Counted from the first letter of the stretch, positions 16,622 through 41,239 are shown. The stretch: 64,000 nt of DNA from Candidatus Shapirobacteria bacterium (GCA_041665485.1 JBAYIT010000002.1:133867-197866); one strand, 5' to 3'. Translations and numbers: made by a program. Notes: generated from the letters alone by a model not told the origin.

Positions 16622-16628
16622 TTAACCC

Positions 16629-27415: not shown

Positions 27416-27877
27416 ATGGAAAATCACCAAATCAATGTTCGTTTAAGAATGGTTATTATCAAAAATGGTAAATTATTGACGCAATACACCGAAAAACACG
27501 ATTATTATTTCTATATCGGTGGTCACTTGGAATATGGCGAAACCGTCCTAGACGGCTGTCAGCGAGAAATAATTGAAGAATGTGGCGACGGCACTAAATT
27601 TACTTTCCAAAAAATACTCTACATCCGCGACTTTATAATGCCCGAAGACAACGAGCATAGTGTCGAGCTTTTTATCCTCGGTGATATCAACAAATTTGAA
27701 GAACTCGAACACCAATTAGACCCCCAACATCCCGACGGTTCTGTCTGGAGCACCTGGCTCAACATCAATAATCTTCCCGCCAATTTATTGCCAAAACTTT
27801 TAACCCCCAAGCTCATCACCGATTATAAAAATAATTTCCCCACCACCGGCGAATACGTCGGCAGAATGAATAAGTAA
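27416..27877 (+). CDS. NUDIX hydrolase
   Basis: Nudix box GGHLEYGETVLDGCQREIIEECG. Confidence 0.7.
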   Translation: MENHQINVRLRMVIIKNGKLLTQYTEKHDYYFYIGGHLEYGETVLDGCQREIIEECGDGTKFTFQKILYIRDFIMPEDNEHSVELFILGDINKFEELEHQLDPQHPDGSVWSTWLNINNLPANLLPKLLTPKLITDYKNNFPTTGEYVGRMNK

Positions 27878-27973
27878 TCACCACTCTGTCCTCTCTGGCC
27901 TCCTTTATCCCATCTCATATAATTTCTCTCCAATTTTACCCCTTTTTGAGCTGAAGTGAGGTAGAATATAGCT

Positions 27974-29434
27974 ATGTTTGAACAATCATTTAAAAACATC
28001 GACAATATTCTCCACACTGATTCTGGTTGCGCCACTGAACTTGATTATGTTGAGCAAACCTCATGGATTCTTTTCCTAAAATATCTTGATGATTTAGAAG
28101 AAGATAAAAAGAAATCAGCCAGTTTGTCCGGAAAAAATTATGATTATATTTTGTCTCCGGAGTTTCGCTGGAATTCTTGGGCCTGCCCCAAAAATAGTAG
28201 CAACAAGCTAGACCTCAACAAAGCCCTCGACGGCGACGACTTAAGAGATTTTGTCAACAATAATCTCTTTCCCTATCTCAAAAAATTTAAAGCCGATAAA
28301 AACGAAGACCGAAACACCATTGAATACAAAATCGGCGAAATTTTCTTTGAATTAAAAAATAAAATTTCCAGTGGTTACAAACTTCGGGAAATTTTAAATA
28401 TCGTCGATGACATGCACTTTCGTCTTTACCAAGAAAAACATGAATTGTCTTACCTCTACGAAGCCAAAATCAAAAACATGGGTAACGCTGGCCGCAATGG
28501 CGGCGAATACTACACCCCCCGCCCCCTCATCAAAACTATTATCAAAGTCGTCGCCCCCAAACTTGGCGAAACAATTTACGACGGCGCTTGCGGCAGTGCC
28601 GGGTTCTTAGTCGAGTCATACAACTATCTAACCCAAGACCAAGCCCACCTGTCCTCAAGCCAAATGGAAGCCCTCCAAACCACCACCTTTTTTGGCAAAG
28701 AAATAAAATCTCTCGCCTACATCATCGGCATTATGAATATGATTTTGCACGGCATTGAAGCCCCAAATATTCGCCACATGAATACTTTATCCGACAATAT
28801 CAACGATATCCAAGAAAAAGACCGCTTTGATATTGTTCTGGCCAATCCGCCCTTCGGCGCCGGCATTGGCCGAGAAATTCAACAAAACTTTCCCATTAAA
28901 ACCGGTGAAACCGCTTTTCTTTTTCTCCAACATTTCATCAAAATTCTCAAAGCTGGTGGCCGGGCCGGCATTGTCATTAAAAATACTTTTCTTTCTAACA
29001 CCGACAATGCCTCAGTAAGTTTACGCAAACTGCTTTTGGAAAATTGCAATCTCCATACTGTCCTTGATTTACCCGGCGGCGCGTTTCAAGGTGCTGGCGT
29101 TAAAACTGTTGTTTTGTTTTTTGAAAAAGGTGCGGCCACTAAAAAAGTTTGGTTTTATCAACTTAATCTTGATCGCAATTTGGGCAAAGGTAATCCTTTA
29201 AATGAAGCCGATTTAGCCGAATTTGTCGAACTCCAAAAAATTCAAGCCACTAGCCCCAACTCTTGGAATGTCGACGTTTCCACCATCGACCAATCCACCT
29301 TCGACCTCTCCCCCAAAAATCCCAACACCGACCCCGGGCCAATTAACAGAGAACCGAAAGAAATTCTAGATGAGATGAAGAAATTGAGTCGGGAATCTGA
29401 ATTAATATTAGCAAAGATAAAAGATTTAATCTAA
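27974..29434 (+). CDS. hsdM: type I restriction-modification system methyltransferase subunit HsdM
   Basis: HsdM N-terminal domain, motif I DGACGSAGFL, motif IV ANPPFG. Confidence 0.9.
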   Translation: MFEQSFKNIDNILHTDSGCATELDYVEQTSWILFLKYLDDLEEDKKKSASLSGKNYDYILSPEFRWNSWACPKNSSNKLDLNKALDGDDLRDFVNNNLFPYLKKFKADKNEDRNTIEYKIGEIFFELKNKISSGYKLREILNIVDDMHFRLYQEKHELSYLYEAKIKNMGNAGRNGGEYYTPRPLIKTIIKVVAPKLGETIYDGACGSAGFLVESYNYLTQDQAHLSSSQMEALQTTTFFGKEIKSLAYIIGIMNMILHGIEAPNIRHMNTLSDNINDIQEKDRFDIVLANPPFGAGIGREIQQNFPIKTGETAFLFLQHFIKILKAGGRAGIVIKNTFLSNTDNASVSLRKLLLENCNLHTVLDLPGGAFQGAGVKTVVLFFEKGAATKKVWFYQLNLDRNLGKGNPLNEADLAEFVELQKIQATSPNSWNVDVSTIDQSTFDLSPKNPNTDPGPINREPKEILDEMKKLSRESELILAKIKDLI

Positions 29435-29437
29435 AAA

Positions 29438-30214
29438 ATGGACGTATCGCCTAATTATTTAATGAAGTTAGTTGGACAAATTGATGCAAAAATTTGGCAA
29501 GTTTTTGAAACTTATAAAAATGTAAATTTCTACATTAAAAAATGGCAAACCTATGACAGCTTTGGTAATGCAAATTTCAATATATCGTATATCGACAACA
29601 AAATTGATTTAAAAGACACCCTCCACTCAATTGACAACGAAAATTTAATTAAAATTGCAGTCGATCTGGGTATTGAAACTCCAGATTTTATTCCATCAGT
29701 CCCAGTAATTAAAAATGTTTTAAAAAATAATTTTCCAACCGCTTTTGATACTTTTAAAAAAGCCATTGATCAAATTGAAGAAAATCCAGATTTAGCTATT
29801 GGTTCAGCAAATTCCACTTTAGAAAGTATTATCAAACACATTTCTGATAATAGTAATATTTCAAAAAAAGTCAACAAAAAAGACACCCTTTATAAACTAA
29901 CCCAGGATATTTTGAAAGAGTTTTCTCTTTTTCCAACCAAATCAATCCCGGTAGAGATAAAAACTATCGGGAGCAGTTTGTTAAATCTATCCCAAAACAT
30001 AGAAAGTTTGAGAAGTAATAAAACAACCTTTCATGGCAAGTCAGCTAATGATTATATTGTCGATGATCCCCTGTATGCCTATTTTATTGTAAACATTGTT
30101 TCTTCAATCGGATTATTTTTGATTAGTTTTTATGAAAAGAAATACAATAAACTTGACCTAAAAAGTTCCGGTGAATATGTCAACGAAACAACCATCGATG
30201 AGATGCCTTTTTAA
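29438..30214 (+). CDS. hypothetical protein embedded between hsdM and hsdS (possible HEPN/Abi-like)
   Basis: 258 aa, starting 3 bp after the hsdM stop. It contains RSNKTTFH (Rx6H), compatible with a HEPN motif. It has a C-terminal hydrophobic segment and no other recognisable motif. Confidence 0.45.
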   Translation: MDVSPNYLMKLVGQIDAKIWQVFETYKNVNFYIKKWQTYDSFGNANFNISYIDNKIDLKDTLHSIDNENLIKIAVDLGIETPDFIPSVPVIKNVLKNNFPTAFDTFKKAIDQIEENPDLAIGSANSTLESIIKHISDNSNISKKVNKKDTLYKLTQDILKEFSLFPTKSIPVEIKTIGSSLLNLSQNIESLRSNKTTFHGKSANDYIVDDPLYAYFIVNIVSSIGLFLISFYEKKYNKLDLKSSGEYVNETTIDEMPF

Positions 30215-30231
30215 ACTAAAAACCATCAAAC

Positions 30232-31446
30232 ATGAAACCTAATTGGCCAACCAAAAGACTTGTGGATCTATATGAAATTACCTCGAGCAAAAGGGTTTTT
30301 AAATCGGAATGGAAAAGCAATGGGATACCTTTTTACAGAGCCAGAGAAATTGTTAAATTAGCACAAAACGGATTTGTTAACAATGAATTGTTCATCTCAA
30401 AAGAGATGTTTGACAAATATTCCGTAAAATACGGCATACCAAAGGAAGGAGACATAATGGTTACAGGAGTAGGCACCCTAGGAATTTGTTATGTAGTTAA
30501 AAATAACGATAAATTTTATTTTAAAGATGGGAACATCATCTGGTTAAAAAAGAAAAGTGATGTCATCACCAAATTTGTTGAATATGCCTTTAAATCAGAC
30601 TTTTTGAGAAAGCAAATAGATAATAGTGCAGGAGCTACGGTGGGAACTTACACCATAATAAAAGCAAAAAATACGATCATTCCTCTTCCACCTCTCCCCG
30701 AACAGATCCACATTGTAGAAATTTTGGATGATGTATTTGAGGATATAAAAAAAGTTAAAGAAAACACTGAAAAGAATCTCCAAAATTTCAAAGACCTTTT
30801 TGAATCATATTTAGACAGTATTTTTAATAATCCAAACGGCAACTTTGAAAATAAAAAAATCAAAGACATTGCTGAAATAAAAGGCGGAAAAAGAGTTCCA
30901 AGAGGATATAAGTTAAAAAATGAAAAAACTAAATATCCGTATATTCGAGTAGCTGATTTTAACAACCATGGCAACATTGACCTCGAAAACATCAAATATG
31001 TTGATAAAAACATTTATGAGCAAATTAAAAATTACACCATTTCAACAAAAGATTTATATATAAGTATTGCCGGTACGATAGGTAAAACAGGCATAATTCC
31101 CCAAGAATTAGAAGGAGCTAATTTAACAGAAAATTCCTGTAAACTGGTTTTTAAAGACAATATCTATAACCGATATATTTACTTTTTTACTAAAAGCACC
31201 GAATTTATTAAACAAGCGGGACTAAATACAAGAAAAGTCGCAATGCCTAAACTTGCCTTAACCAGATTGGGAAACATATTAATTCCAATACCAAAATCAA
31301 TTTCCGAACAAAAGGCAATTGTGGCCAAGTTAGACACATTGGCAGGGGAGACGAAAAATCTGGAGGTGATTTATAAGCAAAAATTGGCCGATTTAGAAGA
31401 ACTGAAAAAATCCATATTAAGCAAGGCCTTTAGTGGAGAATTATAG
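30232..31446 (+). CDS. hsdS: type I restriction-modification system specificity subunit HsdS
   Basis: Two target-recognition domains separated by the conserved LPPLPEQIHIVEILD, with a C-terminal conserved helix. Confidence 0.85.
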   Translation: MKPNWPTKRLVDLYEITSSKRVFKSEWKSNGIPFYRAREIVKLAQNGFVNNELFISKEMFDKYSVKYGIPKEGDIMVTGVGTLGICYVVKNNDKFYFKDGNIIWLKKKSDVITKFVEYAFKSDFLRKQIDNSAGATVGTYTIIKAKNTIIPLPPLPEQIHIVEILDDVFEDIKKVKENTEKNLQNFKDLFESYLDSIFNNPNGNFENKKIKDIAEIKGGKRVPRGYKLKNEKTKYPYIRVADFNNHGNIDLENIKYVDKNIYEQIKNYTISTKDLYISIAGTIGKTGIIPQELEGANLTENSCKLVFKDNIYNRYIYFFTKSTEFIKQAGLNTRKVAMPKLALTRLGNILIPIPKSISEQKAIVAKLDTLAGETKNLEVIYKQKLADLEELKKSILSKAFSGEL

Positions 31447-31640
31447 CCGTGGTAAACTTAAAGCATGAGTAAGCTTATACCCAAAAAAAGAGGTGACACA
31501 CTGGTTAAAACTATCGAGAAGAAATACGGTGTTGACTTGAAATATCGATCAGATGCCCAGCTTCACACCGTACTGGAAAAAGAAGGCTTACCCTCTCTTT
31601 CCAAACTCCTAAAAATGACTCGAAAATAGTCCAAACGATT

Positions 31641-32174
31641 ATGAGTGGTTTTGAATTTATAAAAAGCAAGGAACTCCGCCAGACGCTCGAAAACTCCATC
31701 GAATACATCTACACTCTCTACGAACGGGCAAAAAACGGAGAAGAAAAGCAATTATATAAAGAAGAAACATATCGAGTCATTATTTTGTATGTAATTTCTG
31801 TCATCGAAGCTGTACTTTTTTATTTTTACAAAGAACGTGGAGAAAAAATCGAATCTTTTGAATATAAATATATTAATCAACTTCCGCAAAGTTATACTCA
31901 CACTCTAAAAAAAGATATGCCTATAGTTGTTGCCGTCCAAGAAAAAATCGAAAAAAGTCAGGTTGGTCTGTACGAACTTATAAAATTTTTTAGAGGAAAA
32001 AAACTCATAAAAGAAAGCACCGCCTCCGATATTTTAGAATTAAATGATATTAGAAATACTTTTCACCTTAATAAAGCCCGTACAAAAAGATGCGATATCA
32101 AACAAGTTGAATCAGCTCTAAAATTACTTGTACACACAATTGAAAACGCCCCAAAGGCCTTGAAAATCAATTAA
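31641..32174 (+). CDS. hypothetical all-alpha protein embedded between hsdS and hsdR
   Basis: 177 aa, unknown function. It contains DIRNTFH. It belongs to the class of small genes embedded in restriction-modification operons. Confidence 0.4.
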   Translation: MSGFEFIKSKELRQTLENSIEYIYTLYERAKNGEEKQLYKEETYRVIILYVISVIEAVLFYFYKERGEKIESFEYKYINQLPQSYTHTLKKDMPIVVAVQEKIEKSQVGLYELIKFFRGKKLIKESTASDILELNDIRNTFHLNKARTKRCDIKQVESALKLLVHTIENAPKALKIN

Positions 32175-32210
32175 ACCCCATTTTGTTCGGCGCTGGCTTA
32201 TAATACAATC

Positions 32211-34565
32211 ATGAACGAAGCCGAAACCCGAGCCGAATACATTGATCCCAAGCTTAAAGCCAGTGGTTGGGGAGAAGTCGAAGATTCAAAGGTGTCGCGC
32301 GAATTTCATATCACCGACGGCCGAATCCAAACCGGTGGTGTTCGCGGTAAACCGGAAATCGCTGATTATATTTTGGTATATAAAAACCGCAGAATCGGCG
32401 TTATTGAAGCCAAAGCCGAAAATCTTTCAGTCACCGAAGGTGTCACCCAAGCCAAAGCCTACGCCACCAAATTGCAAATCGATTATGCCTACTCCACCAA
32501 TGGCCACGAAATTTACGAAATCTGTTTAAAAACCGGCCAAGAGGGGATTGTTCCCAATTTTCCCACTCCAAACGAACTGTGGCAAAAAACTTTTTCCCAT
32601 CAAAACCAATGGCAAGAACAATTTGACAATATCCCCTTTGAAGACGGTGGCACCGGCAAAAAACCTAGGTACTATCAAGAAATTGCCGTCAACAATATCG
32701 TTAAAGCCGTCGCCGAAGAAAAAAATCGAATTCTTCTAACCCTCGCCACTGGCACCGGAAAAACTTTTGTTGCTTTCCAAGTTGCTTGGAAACTATTTCA
32801 AACTCGCTGGAATTTAAAACGTGACGGTAACCGCCGGCCAAGAATTTTATTTTTAGCCGACCGGAATATTTTAGCCGACCAAGCCTTCAATGCTTTTTCC
32901 GCCTTTGACAAAGATGCTCTGGTTCGCATCAATCCTCTAGATATTCGCAAAAAAGGCGGTGTACCAATAAGCGGTAGTGTCTTTTTTACTATCTTTCAGA
33001 CCTTTATGAGTGGTAAAGACGGCAGCCCCTATTTTGGCGACTATCCCGCCGACTTTTTCGACCTAATTATCATCGACGAATGTCATCGTGGTGGCGCCAA
33101 CGATGAAAGCAATTGGCGAGGAATTCTCGACTATTTTTCTCCCGCCGTTCAACTTGGTCTAACCGCCACCCCCAAACGAAAAGATAATATCGATACTTAT
33201 AAATATTTCGGTGATCCAGTCTATATTTACTCACTTAAAGACGGTGTTAACGATGGTTTTTTAACTCCTTTTAAAATCAAACGCATTAAAACCACTCTCG
33301 ATGATTATGTCTACACCTCCGACGATCAAATTATCGAGGGCGAAGTGGAAGAAGGCAAGATATACAAAGAACCAGATTTTAATCGAATCATTGTCATTAA
33401 AGAACGCGAAGCCAATAGAGTTCGAATTGTCCTAGACGAAATCAATCAAAGCGAAAAAACAATTATTTTTTGCGCCACCCAAGATCATGCCCTTGCTGTC
33501 CGCGACTTAGTCAATCAGATGAAAGATAGCAAAGACCCCAATTATTGTGTCCGCGTAACCGCCAACGACGGCGATCGGGGCGAACAATTCTTGCGCGAAT
33601 TTCAAGACAACGAAAAAACCATTCCCACCATTCTTACCACTTCCCAAAAACTCTCAACCGGAGTCGACGCCCGCAATATTCGCAATATTGTTTTAATGAG
33701 GCCGATCAATTCCATGATTGAATTCAAACAAATTATTGGTCGTGGCACTAGGCTTTTTGATGGTAAAGAATACTTTACTATTTACGACTTCGTCGATGCT
33801 TATAAGCATTTTTCCGATCCAGAGTGGGACGGGGAACCAATTGATGAGACTACCGACGGACCGAGTGGCCCAGGAGAAGATGGTCCAGGAGGGGATCCAC
33901 CGCCAAAGATTTGTCCTATTTGTGGCAAAGAACCCTGTGAATGTGAAAAAAACCCACCAAAGAAAAAATTAAAAATAAAATTACGTGATGGTAAAGAGAG
34001 GGAAATAAAACATATGATCGCCACCTCATTTTGGAGCGCCGACGGTAAACCAATCACCATTCAAGAATTTATTAATAACATGTATGGCGCTATGCCCGAA
34101 TTTTTCAAATCAGAAGAAGAATTAAGAACCATTTGGTCAAACCCCACCACCCGCAAAGTATTCTTGGAGAAGATCGCCGAAATTGGTTATGGCAAGGATG
34201 AATTAGAAACTTTACAAAAAATAATTGAGGCGGAAAATTCCGACCTTTTCGACGTCCTTACTTATGTTTCTTTTTGCACCCCGCCAATTTCTCGAATCGA
34301 TAGAGTCGAATCGGCAAAACAAAAAATATTTGAGGGTTTGGAAAGTAAACAGAAAGAATTTTTGGATTTTGTTTTATCAAAATATCAGGAAAAAGGAGTC
34401 GAAGAGCTCGATGAGGATAAACTACCAATTTTACTCAATTTGAAATATCACGCCATTGCCAACGCCGAACAATCACTCGGAAATGTCGAAGACATTAGGG
34501 CAATCTTCTTTGGTTTCCAAAAAAATCTTTACGCCAAACCAATCCAGCTATATGCAGACCAATAA
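32211..34565 (+). CDS. hsdR: type I restriction enzyme R subunit HsdR
   Basis: N-terminus MNEAETRAEYIDPKL..GW (the HsdR_N domain). Helicase motifs TGTGKT, DECHRG, QIIGRGTR. A C-terminal Cys4 ribbon CPICGKEPCEC. Confidence 0.9.
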   Translation: MNEAETRAEYIDPKLKASGWGEVEDSKVSREFHITDGRIQTGGVRGKPEIADYILVYKNRRIGVIEAKAENLSVTEGVTQAKAYATKLQIDYAYSTNGHEIYEICLKTGQEGIVPNFPTPNELWQKTFSHQNQWQEQFDNIPFEDGGTGKKPRYYQEIAVNNIVKAVAEEKNRILLTLATGTGKTFVAFQVAWKLFQTRWNLKRDGNRRPRILFLADRNILADQAFNAFSAFDKDALVRINPLDIRKKGGVPISGSVFFTIFQTFMSGKDGSPYFGDYPADFFDLIIIDECHRGGANDESNWRGILDYFSPAVQLGLTATPKRKDNIDTYKYFGDPVYIYSLKDGVNDGFLTPFKIKRIKTTLDDYVYTSDDQIIEGEVEEGKIYKEPDFNRIIVIKEREANRVRIVLDEINQSEKTIIFCATQDHALAVRDLVNQMKDSKDPNYCVRVTANDGDRGEQFLREFQDNEKTIPTILTTSQKLSTGVDARNIRNIVLMRPINSMIEFKQIIGRGTRLFDGKEYFTIYDFVDAYKHFSDPEWDGEPIDETTDGPSGPGEDGPGGDPPPKICPICGKEPCECEKNPPKKKLKIKLRDGKEREIKHMIATSFWSADGKPITIQEFINNMYGAMPEFFKSEEELRTIWSNPTTRKVFLEKIAEIGYGKDELETLQKIIEAENSDLFDVLTYVSFCTPPISRIDRVESAKQKIFEGLESKQKEFLDFVLSKYQEKGVEELDEDKLPILLNLKYHAIANAEQSLGNVEDIRAIFFGFQKNLYAKPIQLYADQ

Positions 34566-34839
34566 TAAAAAAAAAACACCCCAAAGTCACAGAACAAGGT
34601 AATTATTTCAGGATAGACAAACAAAAATCAAACGGAAAAATAATCAAAAAAATAGGGGAGATATTTGGTGAAGGCTGTTAGTTTCAGGGCAAACAACCTT
34701 CGAAATGCCGACGGCTCAACAATCTGCTAAGCCTAAACTCATAATACCATACATCTCGCGATTAGACAATAATATATCCGTACAATACCGCACAAAACAT
34801 CTATTGACAAGTAACTTTCCCTCCTTTCCCTATAATTCC

Positions 34840-34872
34840 GGTATGGCAGTAACATATAATTACTGCCATACC
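34840..34872. promoter_or_regulatory. perfect 13-bp inverted repeat (GGTATGGCAGTAA-N7-TTACTGCCATACC) next to a TTGACA...TATAAT-like promoter
   Basis: It lies 15 bp upstream of the 34887 ORF and is followed by atttcttttc. It could be an operator or an intrinsic terminator. Confidence 0.4.
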
Positions 34873-34886
34873 ATTTCTTTTCAAAT

Positions 34887-35348
34887 ATGAAATTAATAAT
34901 TAAATATTCCCTCACTGGAGAACTTAAAGAAGCGGTTAATGTACTCAAAAACCTAAGTGAGTACGAAAATCTCCGTTCCTTCATCAAACCTTCATTCAAA
35001 TCTATTCTCACCTTTGCTGTAAACAAAAATACAGCAATTAAACATACCCAAAAAGTCTGGCTAGATGCAAAACCGGCAGTAGAAAAAGCATTCAAGGATC
35101 TTGGCATCAAAGATCCGGGAGAAATGCCTTGTTTTCTTCATGGAATGTCCTGCGAAGGTTGGTTTAATACAAACAACAATTCCATCCATGTCCGCTTCCC
35201 AGAAAATGGTGGAGATAAAGAACTCCTTAACACCATCGTTCACGAAATCATCCATCTTGCCACCTACAACAAAAAGTATGATTACGGCAAGCGAGAAGAT
35301 ATTGTCGATAAATACCTCAATAAGCCTCAGTTAAAAAAGATTTTCTAA
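34887..35348 (+). CDS. hypothetical HExxH zinc-metallopeptidase-like protein
   Basis: TIVHEIIHLATYN contains HExxH. 153 aa. Confidence 0.35.
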   Translation: MKLIIKYSLTGELKEAVNVLKNLSEYENLRSFIKPSFKSILTFAVNKNTAIKHTQKVWLDAKPAVEKAFKDLGIKDPGEMPCFLHGMSCEGWFNTNNNSIHVRFPENGGDKELLNTIVHEIIHLATYNKKYDYGKREDIVDKYLNKPQLKKIF

Positions 35349-35414
35349 GTGTAAGCCAATAACCGCTATTATAGAACTCAAATTTAATTTAGCGTAAGAA
35401 TAGGCAAAAAAACT

Positions 35415-35484
35415 TGGTGACCCCAGTTGAGTCGCCGTGTCCGCTGCGCCTGTCCACTGACAGGGCTCAGACGGAAACCCACGA
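35415..35484 (-). pseudogene. tRNA-Glu 3' (T-arm/acceptor) fragment interrupted by a 41-bp GC-rich hairpin insert
   Basis: tggtgaccccagt-t-gagtcg[41-bp insert]aacccacga reproduces the 3' ~30 nt of the adjacent tRNA-Glu. It sits inside a 36-bp direct repeat at 35392-35427 and 35504-35539. Confidence 0.45.
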
Positions 35485-35526
35485 CTCCATTATTAGAAAT
35501 TTAACGTAAGAGTAGGCAAAAAAACT

Positions 35527-35603
35527 TGGTGACCCCAGTGGGAGTCGAACCCACGATTACCTGGATGAAGGCCAGGTGTCCTAGGCCACTAGACGATGGG
35601 GCC
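35527..35603 (-). tRNA. tRNA-Glu (anticodon TTC), CCA encoded
   Basis: The reverse-complement is colinear with E. coli tRNA-Glu. Anticodon stem cctgg/ccagg with loop ccTTCat. T-arm gtggg-ttcgact-cccac. Confidence 0.8.
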
Positions 35604-35735
35604 AAAACTAATTTTAAAAAGGTGCACGGCCACTAAGAGTTTATCCGCCTGTGGCGGAATGGGGCCAAAATTCCTCCTATTATCTCACGCCCCATTTGTT
35701 ATTAAAACTATTAAATAAACTAAAGTCTCCCTTGT

Positions 35736-35921
35736 CAAAGGGAGATTTAGAGGGATTGAAAACTTGCGAAGCGTAGCGAAGTCCGGCTCAGACGGATCAA
35801 AGGGAGATTTAGAGGGATTGAAAACTTGCGAAGCGTAGCGAAGTCCGGCTCAGACGGATCAAAGGGAGATTTAGAGGGATTGGAAACTTGCAAGCGTTGC
35901 GAAGTCCGGCTCAGACAGGTC
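35736..35921. repeat. 62-bp tandem repeat, 3 copies (the third diverged)
   Basis: The unit caaagggagatttagagggattgaaaacttgcgaagcgtagcgaagtccggctcagacggat is repeated at 35736, 35798 and 35860. It lies upstream of the giant surface protein gene. Confidence 0.85.
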
Positions 35922-36076
35922 AAAGGAGGGGATAGGGGTAGATTTTAATTTTAAGCCCCAAAAAAACACACATCAAATACATACTTGCGTTAAATTTGCC
36001 AAACTATAGGCCTAAACGCGACACTTTCCTCATTTTTCTGTATACTCTTTCTAATAATAAACCGATTCTGATTCAA

Positions 36077-39000
36077 ATGAACTTCCGCCAGTTAGCTACT
36101 ATCATTATTCTTTTCTTTCTCTTCCCCTCGTTTATCGCCAAAAAGGCTTATGCCGCCAACCGCACTTGGGATGGCGGTGGCGGGGCTAACACCAATTGGT
36201 CAACTGCCGCCAACTGGTTAGACAACACTGTCCCCTTATCTGGCGACGCCGTTATTTTTGACGGCACTTCCTCCAACAACTCAACCATCGACGCCTCGTT
36301 TGCCGGCACCATTACCAGCCTTTCCATCAACGCCGGTTACGGTGGCACTATCACTCAAGAGCGGTCTCTAACCACCAGTGGTGGTTTTACCCAATCCGCC
36401 GGAACCTATACCGCCGCCGCCCAATCGCTTACCGTCAATGCATCACTAACTCTAAACGGTGGCTCCCTGACTGCCTCCTCAGTAACAACTACTATTGGCG
36501 GTAGCTTAGCCTTAAATGGGGGAATATTCAGCCACAACTCCGGTAACATCGTTTTTTCCACTACTAATTCCACCACCATCACTTGTACTGCCGGCCCTCT
36601 AAACACCATCTCCATTAGTAAAGCCAACAGCAGTATTCAAGTTACCATCTCAGCCAATTGTATTGTTAATTTTCCCAGCGCCGATCCCAGTTCAACCGGC
36701 GCCATTATTAACAACGGAACGGTAAATATAACCGGTAACTGGTCACTTACCGGCGATTACACCGCCAACGTCGGATCATCACTAGCCGTCACCGGCACTA
36801 CTCTATCCGCCCGCCATCTTGTCCTAACCGGAGGCGTTTTTCCCCAAGGAATAACCGATATTACCCTCGGTGGCAATCTAACCAATACCGCCAATCTTCT
36901 TCCCAACGGCACCAATCTTATCCTTAATGGCTCCGTCAATAGCACCCTAAATTGTGGCACTGCCACTTTTTCTTCCCTTACCATCAGCAAGGCTGGCTAC
37001 TACGATGTCAATATTTCCAACAATTGTGCTTTTTCTATTGCTGGCACCAATCCCACCTCAACCGGAAAAATAGTCAATAGTGGCAATCTCACTGTTACTG
37101 GTAATTGGACCGTCAACGGCAGTTATCAAAGCGAAACCGGAGGCCAACTTTCCCTGTCGGGCACCGATCTCACCCTCCAAAGAGACCTTGTCATCAATGG
37201 CGGTTCTTTTCCCGCTTCAAAAAACATCATTTTCAGCGGAAATAGTAGCACTGTTCTTACTTGTGCCAACGCCACCTTTAATTCTGTCTCTCTTTCTCAC
37301 GGTTGGAATTACACTATCAGTATTTCCGCCGGTTGCACCGTTCCTCTATCCGGCACTAATCCGACTATTTCCGGCGGAGTCACCAACAATGGTTCGATTG
37401 GCGCCACTGGCAATTTAACTATAGATGGTGGCTACATTCAAAACTCTGGCGCTTCTCTTCAAATTTCTGGCACTTCTCTTTCTATCGGTCATGGAAATTT
37501 AACTCTTTCCGGTGGTTCTTTTCCCCAAAACATCACCACTATTAGTGTTGAAAATGGCGTTGTTGACAACTCCCAAAGTCTCATCCCCAATGGAGTTGAT
37601 CTTACTCTAACTGGGTCAAGTACTAATAATATTTCTTGTGGTAATGCCAACTTCAATAGTATTACTTTAAACAGAACTGTCGGGGGAATCACTCCTGTTA
37701 GTAATTGCAATATCGGCAATCTAACTATCACCACCGGCGTTATCAATAACTCCGCCACCGCTTATTCATACAATATTACTGGAAACTATTCTCAAGCCTC
37801 TCCCGGATCTGTTGGTGGTTCTAATCTTACCCTGGCTTTTACCGGAAGTTTGGCCCAAACTATCTCAAAAGTCGGTGGCACCCTTGCTTCCCCCCTCCAA
37901 ATTAATAAAACTGGCTCAAATGCTCTGTCACTTTCAACTCCGCTTACCACCACTTCAACTTGTACTGTCACTGAAGGTATCTTCAATCTCAATGGCCAGT
38001 TATTTACCTGTGGCTCAACTTTCACCATCGAAGACGGTGGCACTCTTACCTTATTTGGCTCTGAAATACCTACCACTCCTACTCTTGATTCGGGATCAAA
38101 TGTTATCTACAAAGGAAACGGTGGAGAAAATCAAAATGTTTACAAAGTTAAAGCCTGGAATTATTCCAATCTAACTATTAACCCCACCAATAGCCAAGAT
38201 ATCATCACCTCTACCGTCACTGATTATCTCCCCGGTGCTACTTATCGCTATTGGAAATTCGACGACGGAGTCGGAACAAGTACTGTCGACAGTTCCGGAA
38301 ATAGTGTCAATGGAGTTTTACAAAACATGGAGGCCGACGATTGGAATTCATCCATAAAAGCCACCCTGCCCTTCACCAACGGTTATTCGCTCGCCTTCGA
38401 TGGTTCAACCAGCGAACAGGTTGTTGTCAGCGATGCTATCGATCCAACCGCCTATACTATTTGTGCTTGGGTTCGCCCCTCAGACGTTACCAGTACTAGT
38501 ATTATTATAAGATCCGGAGCCGTTCCCACCACCACTTATCAAGACCAAATATTGATTGACTCCAATAGTAAATTCGAATATTACTCCTATGACGGCGCCT
38601 CCGTCAGGGTTGTCGGCACCTCCACCGTCGTCGCCAATCAATGGCACCATGTTTGCGTTTCCGCCCAAAATAACGGTCAAGCCAAACTATACGTCAATGG
38701 TGTCAGCGAAGGCACCCCCGACACCGTCGGCACTCTAGCCACCACCGCCGACCGCTGGGCTATCGGTTCAAATAGTGGTGGGTCTATGGGTTGGTATGCC
38801 GGCTATATCGACGATGTCCGAGTTTACAACACTGTTTTGTCCGACAACCAAATTTATGCCCTTTCTGACATCGGTCCATCAGTTATCAGCGCCATTACTG
38901 TTGGCGGAAACTTCACTATTACCAGTGGAACTTTTATTTCTCCCACCACTTTTAACATCGCCGGCAATTGGTCAAACACCGGCCTCTTTACTCACAATAA

Positions 39001-41239
39001 CGGTTCTGTTGTTTTTACCGGCGGTAACCAAGAAATATCTGGCTCCAACACCTTCTATAACTTCACTAAAAATGTTACTTCTGCTTATACTCTTACTCTC
39101 CCAGGTGATCTAACCAAAACTCAAACTTTTGCCGGTACTCTTGATCTAAGAGGTATTGCCGATCATCTCTTAACTCTCAATTCCTCTCTCCATCAAACTC
39201 AAGCCAAAATCGACCCTCAATCCACCAGATCAGTCCAATACTTGGCCGTCCACGATATTAATAATATTAATTCTACTTCTATTCCCGTTCTTGGCCTTAA
39301 TGTCACTGATTTGGGCAATAACACCGGCTGGGGCTTCAATCAAGCCCCTCAAGGCCCCACCTCTCTTGGCCCGGCCGGCTTTATTAATGGCAATTATTCA
39401 GGCGACACCACCCCTACCCTGGAATTTACTCTTTCCGATCCCGATTCCGCCGATACCGTTAAATATTTAATCGAAATCGACGACTCAAGCAACTACTCTT
39501 CGCCACTTATCAGCTACACTTCAGATCTTGCCCCCCAAGGCTCAACTTCTTTCACCGTTAGCCAAGATCAAGCACTCCCCGAGGGCCAATATTATTGGCG
39601 GGTTAAAGCCGTCGACAACAACGACAATCAAAGTTCATTTACTACCGCCAGTATCGGAGACTCGCCCGCTTTTATCATCGACAACACTGCCCCCACCAAT
39701 CCCGGCAATCCCTCCACCACCTCTCCCACCAACCAAACCACCCAAACCTGGTCGTGGTCTTCAGCCACCGACGCCTTATCGGGTATTGCTTTTTATCTTT
39801 GGCGAATAACCGACAATCTCGGCAATGCTCTCACTAACGGCACCACTGCCCTATCTTCTTTAACTTCAAATCTAACTCAAGGTATTTTTAGTCTCTTTGT
39901 TAAAAGTCAGGATAATGTTGGCCACCAAAGTAGCGAGTCACCAGGCTCTCTTGTCGTCGACACCACCGCCCCCGTCACCACCAGTTCCGGCACCGACACT
40001 TCTTGGCACGACACTCCTGTCACTGTTACTCTGGAATGTTCCGACACTGGTGGTTCAACTTGTGCCAATACCTATTACACCACCAATGGCGCCAATCCCA
40101 CCACCAGCTCCTCAATTGGCACCACCATTGTTTTGTCAGCCGACGGTGTTTATACCATAAAATATTTTTCCAAAGACACCGCCGGCAACAGTGAATCAAT
40201 CAAAACTGCCGCCAATACCGTAAAAATAGACACTACCCCTCCCACTCCTACTCCCACCCAAACTCCGACTCCAACCCCAACTCAAACCCCAACACCAACG
40301 CCAACTCAAACCCCAACTCCCACTTCTGTCCCAACTTCAACCCCAACCCAAATTCCAACACCAACTCAAACTCCCACTGAAACTCCAACTCCAACCCCAA
40401 CATCTAGCATCCAAGATGTTGGATCCAACACTTCCGGCTCTGTTGCCGGTGTTTCAATCAATCAGGCTCCAACTTGCAACAACCAAACCCCCGGCTCCAA
40501 AGCTCCTCACCTATATGGCGCCAGCGCCAATAACCAAAACTCCATTACTCTTTATTTTTCCGGCGCCGACCTACCTTTTGATCACTACGATCTCTCCTTT
40601 GGTCTAAAATCAGGGGAATATTCTTTTGGCGCCACCAATCTCCCCAAAGACATCAGTCAATATCAAGCCAATAATCTTTCTTCCAATACCACCTATTACT
40701 TCAAAATCAGGCCCGGCAATGGTTGTGCCACCGGCAATTGGTCAAATGAAATTTCCGCCACCACTATGTCCAATATTTCTTTAAATCAAATTGAAACAAC
40801 CGCTCTGTCTCTCGAAACTATCCCCCCAAAACCAAACCCTTCGCCAACTCCCAGTTCTAATCCTTCTCCTTCTCCTCCCCAACCCGCCGACTATCAACTC
40901 CAAATCAAAGTTGTCGACAACCTTAAAAAGCCAATTGTTGGCGCTCAAGTTACTATTCATTCCAAAACTCAAAAAGCCTACACCGATGGGCAGGGGATTG
41001 CTCGTTTTACCAATGTCGAGCCGGGAAACCATAGGGTTCTTATTGCCTACAACGACTATCAAGGCGAGCAAAGCCTCTTTCTCACCGGCAACATTCCGCA
41101 AGTTGACATCAATATTTCCATCAAACTCAATCCTGTCTCCATCTCCCGCTTTACTATTATTATTACCACCTCCCTCTCTCTCATAATTGTCCTCCTCGTC
41201 GTCTATATCCTCAAACAAAAAAATAAATTTAAAAATTAG
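36077..41239 (+). CDS. giant cell-surface protein (1721 aa) with signal peptide, beta-helical repeats, LamG-like domain, PT-rich linker and C-terminal TM anchor
   Basis: Start at MNFRQLATIIILFFLF (signal peptide). Repetitive T/S/N/G-rich beta-helix-like repeats. A LamG-like stretch QWHHVCVSAQNNGQAKLYVNGV. A (TPTPTQ)n linker. A C-terminal CarbopepD-like beta domain and a TM segment IIITTSLSLIIVLLVVYIL. Confidence 0.75.
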   Translation: MNFRQLATIIILFFLFPSFIAKKAYAANRTWDGGGGANTNWSTAANWLDNTVPLSGDAVIFDGTSSNNSTIDASFAGTITSLSINAGYGGTITQERSLTTSGGFTQSAGTYTAAAQSLTVNASLTLNGGSLTASSVTTTIGGSLALNGGIFSHNSGNIVFSTTNSTTITCTAGPLNTISISKANSSIQVTISANCIVNFPSADPSSTGAIINNGTVNITGNWSLTGDYTANVGSSLAVTGTTLSARHLVLTGGVFPQGITDITLGGNLTNTANLLPNGTNLILNGSVNSTLNCGTATFSSLTISKAGYYDVNISNNCAFSIAGTNPTSTGKIVNSGNLTVTGNWTVNGSYQSETGGQLSLSGTDLTLQRDLVINGGSFPASKNIIFSGNSSTVLTCANATFNSVSLSHGWNYTISISAGCTVPLSGTNPTISGGVTNNGSIGATGNLTIDGGYIQNSGASLQISGTSLSIGHGNLTLSGGSFPQNITTISVENGVVDNSQSLIPNGVDLTLTGSSTNNISCGNANFNSITLNRTVGGITPVSNCNIGNLTITTGVINNSATAYSYNITGNYSQASPGSVGGSNLTLAFTGSLAQTISKVGGTLASPLQINKTGSNALSLSTPLTTTSTCTVTEGIFNLNGQLFTCGSTFTIEDGGTLTLFGSEIPTTPTLDSGSNVIYKGNGGENQNVYKVKAWNYSNLTINPTNSQDIITSTVTDYLPGATYRYWKFDDGVGTSTVDSSGNSVNGVLQNMEADDWNSSIKATLPFTNGYSLAFDGSTSEQVVVSDAIDPTAYTICAWVRPSDVTSTSIIIRSGAVPTTTYQDQILIDSNSKFEYYSYDGASVRVVGTSTVVANQWHHVCVSAQNNGQAKLYVNGVSEGTPDTVGTLATTADRWAIGSNSGGSMGWYAGYIDDVRVYNTVLSDNQIYALSDIGPSVISAITVGGNFTITSGTFISPTTFNIAGNWSNTGLFTHNNGSVVFTGGNQEISGSNTFYNFTKNVTSAYTLTLPGDLTKTQTFAGTLDLRGIADHLLTLNSSLHQTQAKIDPQSTRSVQYLAVHDINNINSTSIPVLGLNVTDLGNNTGWGFNQAPQGPTSLGPAGFINGNYSGDTTPTLEFTLSDPDSADTVKYLIEIDDSSNYSSPLISYTSDLAPQGSTSFTVSQDQALPEGQYYWRVKAVDNNDNQSSFTTASIGDSPAFIIDNTAPTNPGNPSTTSPTNQTTQTWSWSSATDALSGIAFYLWRITDNLGNALTNGTTALSSLTSNLTQGIFSLFVKSQDNVGHQSSESPGSLVVDTTAPVTTSSGTDTSWHDTPVTVTLECSDTGGSTCANTYYTTNGANPTTSSSIGTTIVLSADGVYTIKYFSKDTAGNSESIKTAANTVKIDTTPPTPTPTQTPTPTPTQTPTPTPTQTPTPTSVPTSTPTQIPTPTQTPTETPTPTPTSSIQDVGSNTSGSVAGVSINQAPTCNNQTPGSKAPHLYGASANNQNSITLYFSGADLPFDHYDLSFGLKSGEYSFGATNLPKDISQYQANNLSSNTTYYFKIRPGNGCATGNWSNEISATTMSNISLNQIETTALSLETIPPKPNPSPTPSSNPSPSPPQPADYQLQIKVVDNLKKPIVGAQVTIHSKTQKAYTDGQGIARFTNVEPGNHRVLIAYNDYQGEQSLFLTGNIPQVDINISIKLNPVSISRFTIIITTSLSLIIVLLVVYILKQKNKFKN

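Follow-up and report, generated by a model that had tools for sequence, protein, structure and literature searches.

A type IB restriction-modification operon of Candidatus Shapirobacteria with an Abi_C gene and an uncatalogued, HEPN-like two-gene cassette between its hsd genes

We analysed a 64,000-nucleotide (nt) stretch of DNA, hereafter the window, from a metagenome-assembled genome of Candidatus Shapirobacteria (Patescibacteria), in which positions 27,416 to 35,348 contain a type I restriction-modification operon with additional genes inserted between hsdM, hsdS and hsdR (Table 1). A first-pass annotation had described these three hsd genes as complete and co-oriented, with a Nudix gene at the left boundary, and both statements are borne out: the hsd open reading frames (ORFs) are intact, without frameshifts and in one orientation, all three match curated models, and hsdM follows the Nudix gene at a distance of 96 nt. 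HsdM is recognized by Pfam N6_Mtase (5.3e-62) and HsdM_N and, over its full length, by PADLOC MTase_I (5e-153), while HsdS matches Pfam Methylase_S (6e-36) in two stretches as well as PADLOC Specificity_I. HsdR carries the Pfam domains ResIII, Helicase_C and EcoEI_R_C (PF08463, 4.9e-25) and matches the NCBIfam model NF046051 for the R subunit of the EcoAI/FtnUII family (2.4e-249, 829.8 bits at a cut-off of 550); this match spans residues 1–774 against a profile of 768 positions and is full length. Judged by its gene content, the locus is a complete type IB restriction-modification operon of the EcoAI/EcoEI family, which as such would be expected to methylate a bipartite target and to restrict DNA in an ATP-dependent manner. 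It resembles the systems of EcoAI, the type IB prototype (PMC3874165), and EcoEI in the match of its HsdR to the EcoAI/FtnUII model, in the EcoEI_R_C domain and in the presence of HsdM and a two-domain HsdS, whereas it differs from them in holding three extra genes and in its patescibacterial host. The first-pass annotation had counted two extra ORFs. The one that starts 3 nt past hsdM, which we call ORF-A, is present as described, but the gap between hsdS and hsdR holds two genes, bringing the total to three, since a gene for a protein of 54 amino acids (aa), small54, lies between hsdS and the ORF of 177 aa, ORF-B. From hsdM to hsdR, the intergenic gaps measure 3, 17, 18, 11 and 36 nt. The guanine-plus-cytosine (GC) content of ORF-A, hsdS and ORF-B is 0.30–0.32 (0.27–0.31 at third codon positions; ORF-A 0.30 versus hsdM 0.41), compared with 0.41–0.42 for hsdM, hsdR and the whole window. 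The middle of the operon (29438–32174) thus looks compositionally foreign relative to its conserved ends.

Table 1. Genes, predicted promoter elements and repeats of the operon and its right-hand flank (positions in the window)
Feature	Position	Strand	Length, evidence or remark
Nudix gene	27416-27877	+	153 aa
-10-like hexamer TAGAAT	27962-27967	+	6 nt upstream of hsdM ATG, as would fit a leaderless transcript; sequence-read prediction
hsdM, type I DNA methyltransferase subunit	27974-29434	+	486 aa; Pfam and PADLOC
ORF-A, abortive-infection family protein with C-terminal Abi_C (HEPN-type) domain	29438-30214	+	258 aa; PF14355
hsdS, specificity subunit with two target-recognition domains	30232-31446	+	404 aa; Pfam and PADLOC
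Extended -10 box TGGTAAACT (predicted)	31450-31458	+	starts 15 nt upstream of small54 start codon
small54, basic protein	31465-31629	+	54 aa; pairing and coding signature
ORF-B, HEPN-like fold (modelled), E56...R138-N139-x-x-H142 motif	31641-32174	+	177 aa; AlphaFold2 and Foldseek
-10 hexamer TATAAT	32199-32204	+	6 nt upstream of hsdR ATG; sequence-read prediction
hsdR, type IB restriction/translocase subunit	32211-34565	+	784 aa; NF046051 and Pfam
542-bp module: hairpin and 153-aa gene	34808-35349	+	85% DNA identity to L041-L043
Hairpin, 13-bp stem	34840-34872	+	in 542-bp module
153-aa gene containing HEIIH	34887-35348	+	in 542-bp module
42-nt direct repeat, tRNA-Glu 3' end and downstream flank	35386-35427	-	95% identical to 35498-35539
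tRNA-Glu(UUC), 3' end facing island	35527-35603	-	ARAGORN; Rfam tRNA 57.1 bits

The genes embedded in this operon had been suspected to be of the abortive-infection or HEPN type, and for ORF-A this is supported. The protein matches the Pfam family Abi_C above its cut-off (2.4e-10, 40.8 bits, cut-off 24) over residues 153–229, all of its 691 homologues are full length and carry PF14355, and several of them are named "abortive infection family protein". In 37 aligned sequences the residues E189, R192 and H199 are invariant, so that the resulting R-x6-H lies within the HEPN definition R-x4-6-H and is preceded by a conserved acidic residue. As its start lies 3 nt past hsdM, ORF-A is probably co-translated with hsdM. 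We take Pfam Abi_C to be the AbiJ HEPN family. A published account of HEPN proteins, which names no Pfam entry, describes HEPN genes embedded in restriction-modification operons together with a second-line model of the PrrC type, and states that AbiJ-family proteins occur within such operons (PMC3710099). ORF-A resembles AbiJ-type proteins in that it exceeds the gathering score of PF14355 and has a conserved R-x6-H, whereas its N-terminal 150 aa have no assignment to the described AbiJ N-terminal domains. We looked up the genomic context of six ORF-A homologues in their contigs. One belongs to a sister type IB operon of the order M-AbiC-S-x-R, whose HsdM and HsdR are 69–70% identical to the window proteins, one lies directly 3' of a type ISP enzyme, one is part of another type I family with the order M-S-AbiC-x-GmrSD-R and one lies in an island with a methyltransferase and AIPR; the remaining two have mobile-element contexts, one adjoining TraG and RhuM genes and the other occurring as two tandem copies in an integrase-carrying island. 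Relatives of ORF-A are often found inside or beside restriction-modification operons, and by its profile matches ORF-A itself is an ordinary member of a known family already known from such operons.

The two genes between hsdS and hsdR, in contrast to ORF-A, belong to no catalogued family and form a strictly paired cassette. A search of species-representative genomes (185,579 species genomes) with the ORF-B alignment gave 30 loci, and in all 30 of them a small54 homologue lies directly upstream of the ORF-B homologue, mostly separated by 2–12 nt (11 nt in the window). We regard small54 as a real coding gene because 58% of the nucleotide differences among the 30 orthologues fall on codon position 3 and synonymous codon differences exceed non-synonymous ones (9099 versus 5840). 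Its homologues (n=216) are about 57 aa long and 76–94% identical. The protein is strongly basic, with an isoelectric point (pI) of 10.1 and a net charge of about +8; the pI of ORF-B is 9.1. Scans of Pfam, NCBIfam, PADLOC and PHROG found no family for small54, and a profile search of the PDB with its alignment gave no meaningful match. The structural model of small54 consists of three short helices and is of low confidence (predicted local distance difference test, pLDDT, 66), which makes the matches of a fold search with this model meaningless; two 524-aa proteins that were clustered with small54 are unrelated to it and represent a clustering artefact. As an impression only, its C-terminal half resembles helix-turn-helix motifs of the SAP/HeH type.

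For ORF-B, structure prediction with AlphaFold2 gave a confident model (pLDDT 89.3, predicted template modelling score 0.80) with helices at residues 10–32 and 37–66, a beta-hairpin at 71–104 and further helices at 110–119, 125–141 and 153–174. When this model was compared to the PDB with Foldseek, nearly all best matches were HEPN proteins, among them YutE (1ylm), AF0298 (2hsb), Csm6 (5yjc), HI0074 (1jog) and ST0689 (1wol), as well as the HEPN toxins of HEPN-MNT systems (5yep, 7bxo, 7ae8; SO_3166/HepT); viral structures gave weak HEPN-labelled matches only. Across 66 divergent ORF-B relatives with 18–45% identity, E56 and N139 are invariant and R138 and H142 are conserved in at least 90% of the sequences. 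The resulting RNxxH is located where the third long helix (125–141) ends, with the asparagine following the arginine. HEPN proteins have been described to carry an R-x4-6-H motif with a polar residue after the arginine at helix 3's end, and HEPN domains with inserts between helices 2 and 3 are known (PMC3710099). On the strength of its modelled fold we describe ORF-B as HEPN-like, although it is not filed in any HEPN family.

Several results speak against a HEPN assignment of ORF-B. While the top Foldseek probabilities are 0.9–1.0, the corresponding E-values are weak (0.03–0.3) and the template modelling scores reach only 0.4–0.53. The spacing R-x3-H (R138-N-T-F-H142) holds family-wide and is one residue below the canonical R-x4-6-H. 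Moreover, ORF-B matches no Pfam, NCBIfam, PADLOC or PHROG family, its profile search of the PDB returned nothing at E<=10, and a profile-profile comparison with the Abi_C family gave a probability of 0.15. This last comparison shows no relationship, and the two embedded HEPN-type genes are therefore not paralogues. The earlier proposal that the gene between hsdS and hsdR is of the HEPN type is hence carried by the confident model and the best matches among solved structures, but not by a sequence family or by a canonical motif. Among the 66 distant members there are sub-threshold matches only, four to DUF4145 (best E-value 0.0094) and one to HEPN, and the window protein itself has no DUF4145 match. 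DUF4145 is a HEPN family known from restriction-modification operons (PMC3710099) and the sole Pfam family matched by several divergent ORF-B relatives, even though every one of these matches lies below threshold. A parallel in architecture is offered by the HEPN-MNT systems (HepT/MntA, SO_3166/SO_3165), which are likewise two-gene modules with a small HEPN toxin and are found among the top structural matches of ORF-B. They differ from the cassette in that its partner protein is a 54-aa helical basic protein and not a nucleotidyltransferase, that the motif of ORF-B is R-x3-H versus R-x4-H, and that helices 2 and 3 of ORF-B are separated by a beta-hairpin insert.

Both ORF-A and ORF-B are kept as ORFs in many loci, and neither of the two findings that the first-pass annotation had named as speaking against its reading, homology to ordinary metabolic proteins and lack of conservation as ORFs, was made. 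As an accessory of restriction-modification, however, the gene before hsdR does not hold up. It is one half of a strict two-gene cassette, which occupies the position between hsdS and hsdR in 7 of the 30 loci and in the window (the HsdM and HsdR proteins there are 71–82% identical and belong to closely related type IB operons), whereas 22 of the 30 loci have no restriction-modification genes nearby. These stand-alone cassettes have as neighbours the genes of ArgRS and IleRS, AspRS, a class I Trp/Tyr-type aminoacyl-tRNA synthetase and TGT as well as GyrA, PolA, DnaE and ribosomal protein S2. We found neither a constant third gene nor a repeatedly occurring neighbour: the 84 flanking proteins gave 98 families, none of which is seen more than twice. 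The hosts are mostly Patescibacteria, joined by Hanamia (Bacteroidota) and by gammaproteobacterial and Elusimicrobiaceae assemblies, and in a neighbour-joining tree (without bootstrap) the copies embedded in restriction-modification operons are scattered. Since it is found mostly outside such operons and among heterogeneous neighbours, we consider the cassette an autonomous, patchily distributed unit and not an accessory of restriction-modification. In two of the sister operons (L005 8578-10871 and L009 8553-10801) hsdR matches in several shifted pieces, as does hsdS in L005, which suggests frameshifted, decaying copies or sequencing errors; the cassette is intact in both.

The layout of the cassette is that of type II toxin-antitoxin loci, with small, adjacent and co-directional genes, pairing in 30 of 30 loci, a patchy distribution and a predicted promoter. 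This raises the question of whether small54/ORF-B might be a plain toxin-antitoxin pair, i.e. a selfish addiction module that stabilizes its carrier DNA and has no role in phage defence. Strict pairing, a promoter-like box of its own, occurrence across phyla and variable neighbours would all be expected of such a module. On the other hand, the 7 loci and the window share the same slot of one operon lineage, and other copies have as neighbours the gene of an MmeI-type enzyme or one of two helicase/S24 peptidase genes of the Schlafen type, and this recurrence in one restriction-modification slot and near MmeI- and Schlafen-type genes suggests an affinity for defence contexts. Addiction modules are frequent on plasmids, yet the plasmid collection contained no copy of the cassette, and the properties of small54 are atypical for an antitoxin. 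We thus consider a pure addiction module unlikely.

Another view of the same distribution would be that the pair serves the patescibacterial cell as a factor that binds nucleic acids or processes RNA, and that it sometimes lies inside a restriction-modification operon by chance. Both proteins are basic and small54 is extremely conserved, most loci lie between co-oriented housekeeping genes that include several aminoacyl-tRNA synthetases and TGT, and there are no phage or plasmid copies. However, the family is very sparse (1.84 billion representatives yield 137 clusters at 50% identity, and the 185,579 species genomes yield 30 loci), it occurs also in Bacteroidota, Gammaproteobacteria and Elusimicrobia assemblies, and its neighbours are never the same. 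Such a sparse, cross-phylum pattern with variable neighbours fits an accessory, horizontally moving module, and a cellular factor appears quite improbable to us. Several stand-alone cassettes (L004, L019, L020 and L001) are found beside tRNA-related genes, namely those of ArgRS and IleRS, the Trp/Tyr-type synthetase, AspRS and TGT; this apparent excess of tRNA-related neighbours may be a selection effect, as large neighbours were annotated first.

Upstream of small54 we found a promoter-like element of the form TGnTAnAnT. Of 31 loci, 23 have its start within positions -20 to -12 relative to the start codon, and 19 have it exactly at -15, while a box of this type precedes at most 24 of 366 control ORFs. 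The spacing of this box to the small54 ATG predicts that the cassette has its own promoter and is transcribed as a leaderless mRNA. A hexamer at -12 to -7 is common to hsdM, small54 and hsdR, and because the hexamers share their position relative to the respective ATG we predict three separate transcription units, namely hsdM-ORF-A-hsdS, small54-ORF-B and hsdR. Within the window, 14 of 47 ORFs have a hexamer of the -10 type (TAnnnT, in many cases TATAAT) exactly 6 nt before their first start codon (for example at the genes starting at 16626, 27974, 32211 and 57755), compared with a chance expectation of about 8%, a rough estimate from base composition. This suggests that leaderless transcription may be widespread in the Candidatus Shapirobacteria host.

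In the sister operons that had been found through ORF-B, the slot between hsdM and hsdS (M-S slot) holds a different cargo each time: a Swt1-like HEPN protein, AAA_21 together with RloB, Shedu SduA_C, KilA-N and Bro-N, a HATPase_c gene and genes without known family. Since these first sister loci were selected through ORF-B, we resampled the lineage through hsdR alone and obtained 80 metagenome loci with 74–82% identity (L044-L123); this sample contains near-duplicate loci, so that the slot counts are approximate. The slot between hsdS and hsdR (S-R slot) was filled in 47 of 66 loci, with 63 cargo proteins in 24 sequence clusters, and the M-S slot in 48 of 52 loci, with 87 cargo proteins in 63 sequence clusters; both slots were compact in only three loci. 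The cargo seen most often in the S-R slot, in 15 loci (e.g. L052:5939-7090), is a protein of about 380 aa with a Fic (AMP-transferase) domain. The notion that the S-R slot always holds the cassette was rejected as an artefact of the retrieval through ORF-B, and the combination of cargo in the window is one rare outcome. Because the cargo varies in both slots, we regard the two operon junctions as general insertion points for toxin- and defence-type genes. Two individual cargo proteins are of note for their resemblances. A 169-aa protein in the S-R slot of the Abi_C-carrying sister operon (L031:8881-9390) contains the stretches …PDIIIHKRG…VIEAKK…, which by reading only look like a PD-(D/E)xK nuclease motif. 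A 198-aa protein in the M-S slot of a sister operon (L057:2809-3405) gives a weak hit to the profile of the ORF-B family (E 1.3e-6); no small54 gene was detected in its locus, and it may be a distant unpaired relative of ORF-B. Toxin-type genes inside restriction-modification operons are already a known theme, of which the locus described here is another example, and the rlo genes of Campylobacter likewise sit between hsd genes. TgvAB of Vibrio cholerae (PMC11411939) and DarTG2 of enteropathogenic Escherichia coli (PMC12255303) are embedded in active type I restriction-modification loci. The window shares with these two the presence of extra genes between the hsd genes, whereas its cargo belongs to other families and fills two slots, and its lineage carries dozens of alternative cargos.

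The variability of the slots also bears on the idea that the embedded proteins are accessory subunits or regulators of the Hsd complex, either held inactive by it as PrrC is or controlling the expression of hsdR. In favour of a connection to the Hsd complex, ORF-A starts 3 nt past hsdM, its homologues repeatedly follow methyltransferase genes, the promoter-like box of the cassette could drive hsdR as well, and PrrC provides a precedent. Yet hsdR has a TATAAT box of its own, two of the six ORF-A homologues do not lie beside any restriction-modification gene, the 22 stand-alone loci place the cassette away from such genes altogether, and the same operon lineage works with quite different cargo or with none. 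We therefore regard an accessory function within the Hsd complex as very improbable.

The explanation that we consider probable for the locus as a whole is that of an intact type IB operon with two cargo slots, whose present cargo would provide a HEPN-type second barrier. As a first barrier, the Hsd enzyme would methylate host DNA and cut unmodified incoming DNA. When restriction is bypassed or host gene expression collapses, a second barrier would come from the two HEPN-type proteins as latent ribonucleases (RNases) that stop translation in the infected cell. In the cassette, whose transcription would start at the small54 ATG via the extended -10 box, small54 would keep ORF-B inactive or would direct it in a manner similar to toxin-antitoxin systems. 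The N-terminal domain of ORF-A (about 150 aa) might serve as a sensor or inhibitor and its C-terminal HEPN domain as the effector part. The scheme builds on what the sequences and the model show, namely the identity and completeness of the genes, the strict pairing and autonomy of the cassette, the resemblance in fold and the variable slots, whereas RNase activity, toxicity, its neutralization, the link to phages and the promoters are inferred. The order of the two barriers is drawn from the general proposal made for HEPN genes in such operons and from the analogy with PrrC in EcoprrI, where PrrC is held by the Hsd complex (PMC3710099, PMC3874165). The locus shares with PrrC/EcoprrI, a type IC system with a latent anticodon nuclease, a HEPN-type gene inside the hsd operon and the two-barrier logic. 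It differs in that PrrC has an N-terminal ABC-ATPase domain, which both ORF-A and ORF-B are devoid of, and in that ORF-B is accompanied by a small protein and in most cases is found where there is no restriction-modification system. Neither ORF-A nor ORF-B showed similarity to PrrC or RloC, and the link to PrrC, RloB or anticodon nucleases that had been suspected for the embedded genes finds no evidence in either protein.

A number of observations fit less well with such a second barrier. As an antitoxin small54 would be atypical, since it is basic, as is ORF-B, and it is more conserved (76–94%) than its putative toxin partner ORF-B (45–70% identity). Searches with ORF-B found no relatives of the cassette in phage, plasmid and viral-contig collections, and the frequent location among housekeeping genes would fit a cellular role too. 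Finally, in the sample obtained through hsdR alone, only one of 66 S-R slots (in L084) contains the cassette and Abi_C occurs in none, so that a specific functional link to this restriction-modification system is not implied.

To the right of hsdR, the first-pass annotation had let the island end at a tRNA-Glu gene followed by a tRNA-Glu fragment, and had considered this consistent with a mobile defence island targeted to tRNA. A tRNA-Glu(UUC) gene is indeed present, but it is separated from hsdR by a 542-bp module that comprises a hairpin and a 153-aa gene. The DNA match of this module to L041-L043 starts 79 nt before the 153-aa gene, includes the hairpin and ends at the stop codon; in L041-L043 the module lies between radical-SAM/SPASM and peptidase C39 genes. 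To judge by this conservation, the 153-aa gene is not part of the restriction-modification operon. Its setting between radical-SAM/SPASM and C39 genes looks like a peptide-maturation cluster, and the copy in the window is without those neighbours. An ORF of 61 aa at 34705–34890 was rejected as a gene, since the protein collection has no entry with exactly this sequence and only its last 80 nt are conserved, which correspond to the hairpin-containing leader of the following gene. It is thus probably not a gene.

The tRNA-Glu fragment is real as well, in the form of a 42-nt copy that consists of 13 nt of the tRNA 3' end and 29 nt of its downstream flank (two matches versus 0.01 expected by chance), but it lies before the tRNA and not after it. 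After the tRNA only a 12-nt copy is found. The 42-nt repeat and its twin bracket a spacer of 70 nt (35428–35497) and not the island, and no further copy exists in the 64-kb window, including the left end near 27.4 kb. A decayed tRNA in the spacer was considered and dismissed, as neither ARAGORN nor Rfam finds one. Integration at the tRNA would be in line with the orientation of its 3' end towards the island, with the copy of this end and flank 112 nt away and with the low GC content of ORF-A, hsdS and ORF-B. The sister operons with a tRNA-Asn about 370 nt after hsdR (L009) and a tRNA-Gly 29 nt before hsdM (L010) are suggestive in this respect, albeit not decisive. Against mobility of the whole block, there is no integrase or recombinase among the ORFs of 27.4–35.6 kb, there is no copy of the tRNA end at the left side, an unrelated module separates hsdR from the tRNA, and the GC content of hsdM and hsdR (0.41–0.42) is the same as that of the window (0.41). 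Moreover, 7 tRNA genes occur within the 64 kb of the window, so that a nearby tRNA is not surprising. A tRNA-targeted mobile island is hence distinctly unlikely.

The region beyond the tRNA showed further repeats. The 12-nt copy (35659–35670) corresponds to the tRNA-Glu 5' end together with 4 nt of the flank upstream of it (TTTTGGCCCCAT, read on the tRNA strand) and lies 56 nt beyond the tRNA; with an expectation of 0.4 window-wide it is not significant, but notable for its closeness. Three tandem copies of a 62-nt unit follow just past the tRNA-Glu at 35735–35920, the first two being identical, and the 12-mer GGCTCAGACGGA occurs both in this unit and in the 70-nt spacer. An ORF that follows the tRNA (35996–41239) encodes a protein of 1747 aa, probably a large surface protein, in which Laminin_G_3, Ig-like and CarboxypepD_reg domains are recognized.

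To judge from the database and structure comparisons, small54/ORF-B represents a family that has not been catalogued; its kind of partner protein is new, and its motif departs from the canonical one. As a tentative possibility, small54 and ORF-B may constitute an undescribed two-component RNase system centred on Patescibacteria, in which a HEPN-like enzyme with a shortened RNxxH motif would be governed by small54 as a nucleic-acid-binding sensor or adaptor, with the type IB lineage acting as a general two-slot carrier. If true, such a sensor or adaptor role would differ from that of a classical labile antitoxin and would explain why small54 is more conserved than the enzyme. Likewise, if ORF-B is active, its R-x3-H would extend the accepted definition of the HEPN motif. 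With a size of about 700 bp and a promoter-like box, the cassette is small enough for direct testing in E. coli. It matters as a compact and strictly paired unit that is found mostly in Patescibacteria, which are hard to culture and whose defence repertoire is poorly known. The type IB lineage, with its two slots and dozens of unrelated cargo families, is a source of candidate defence genes from uncultivated bacteria.

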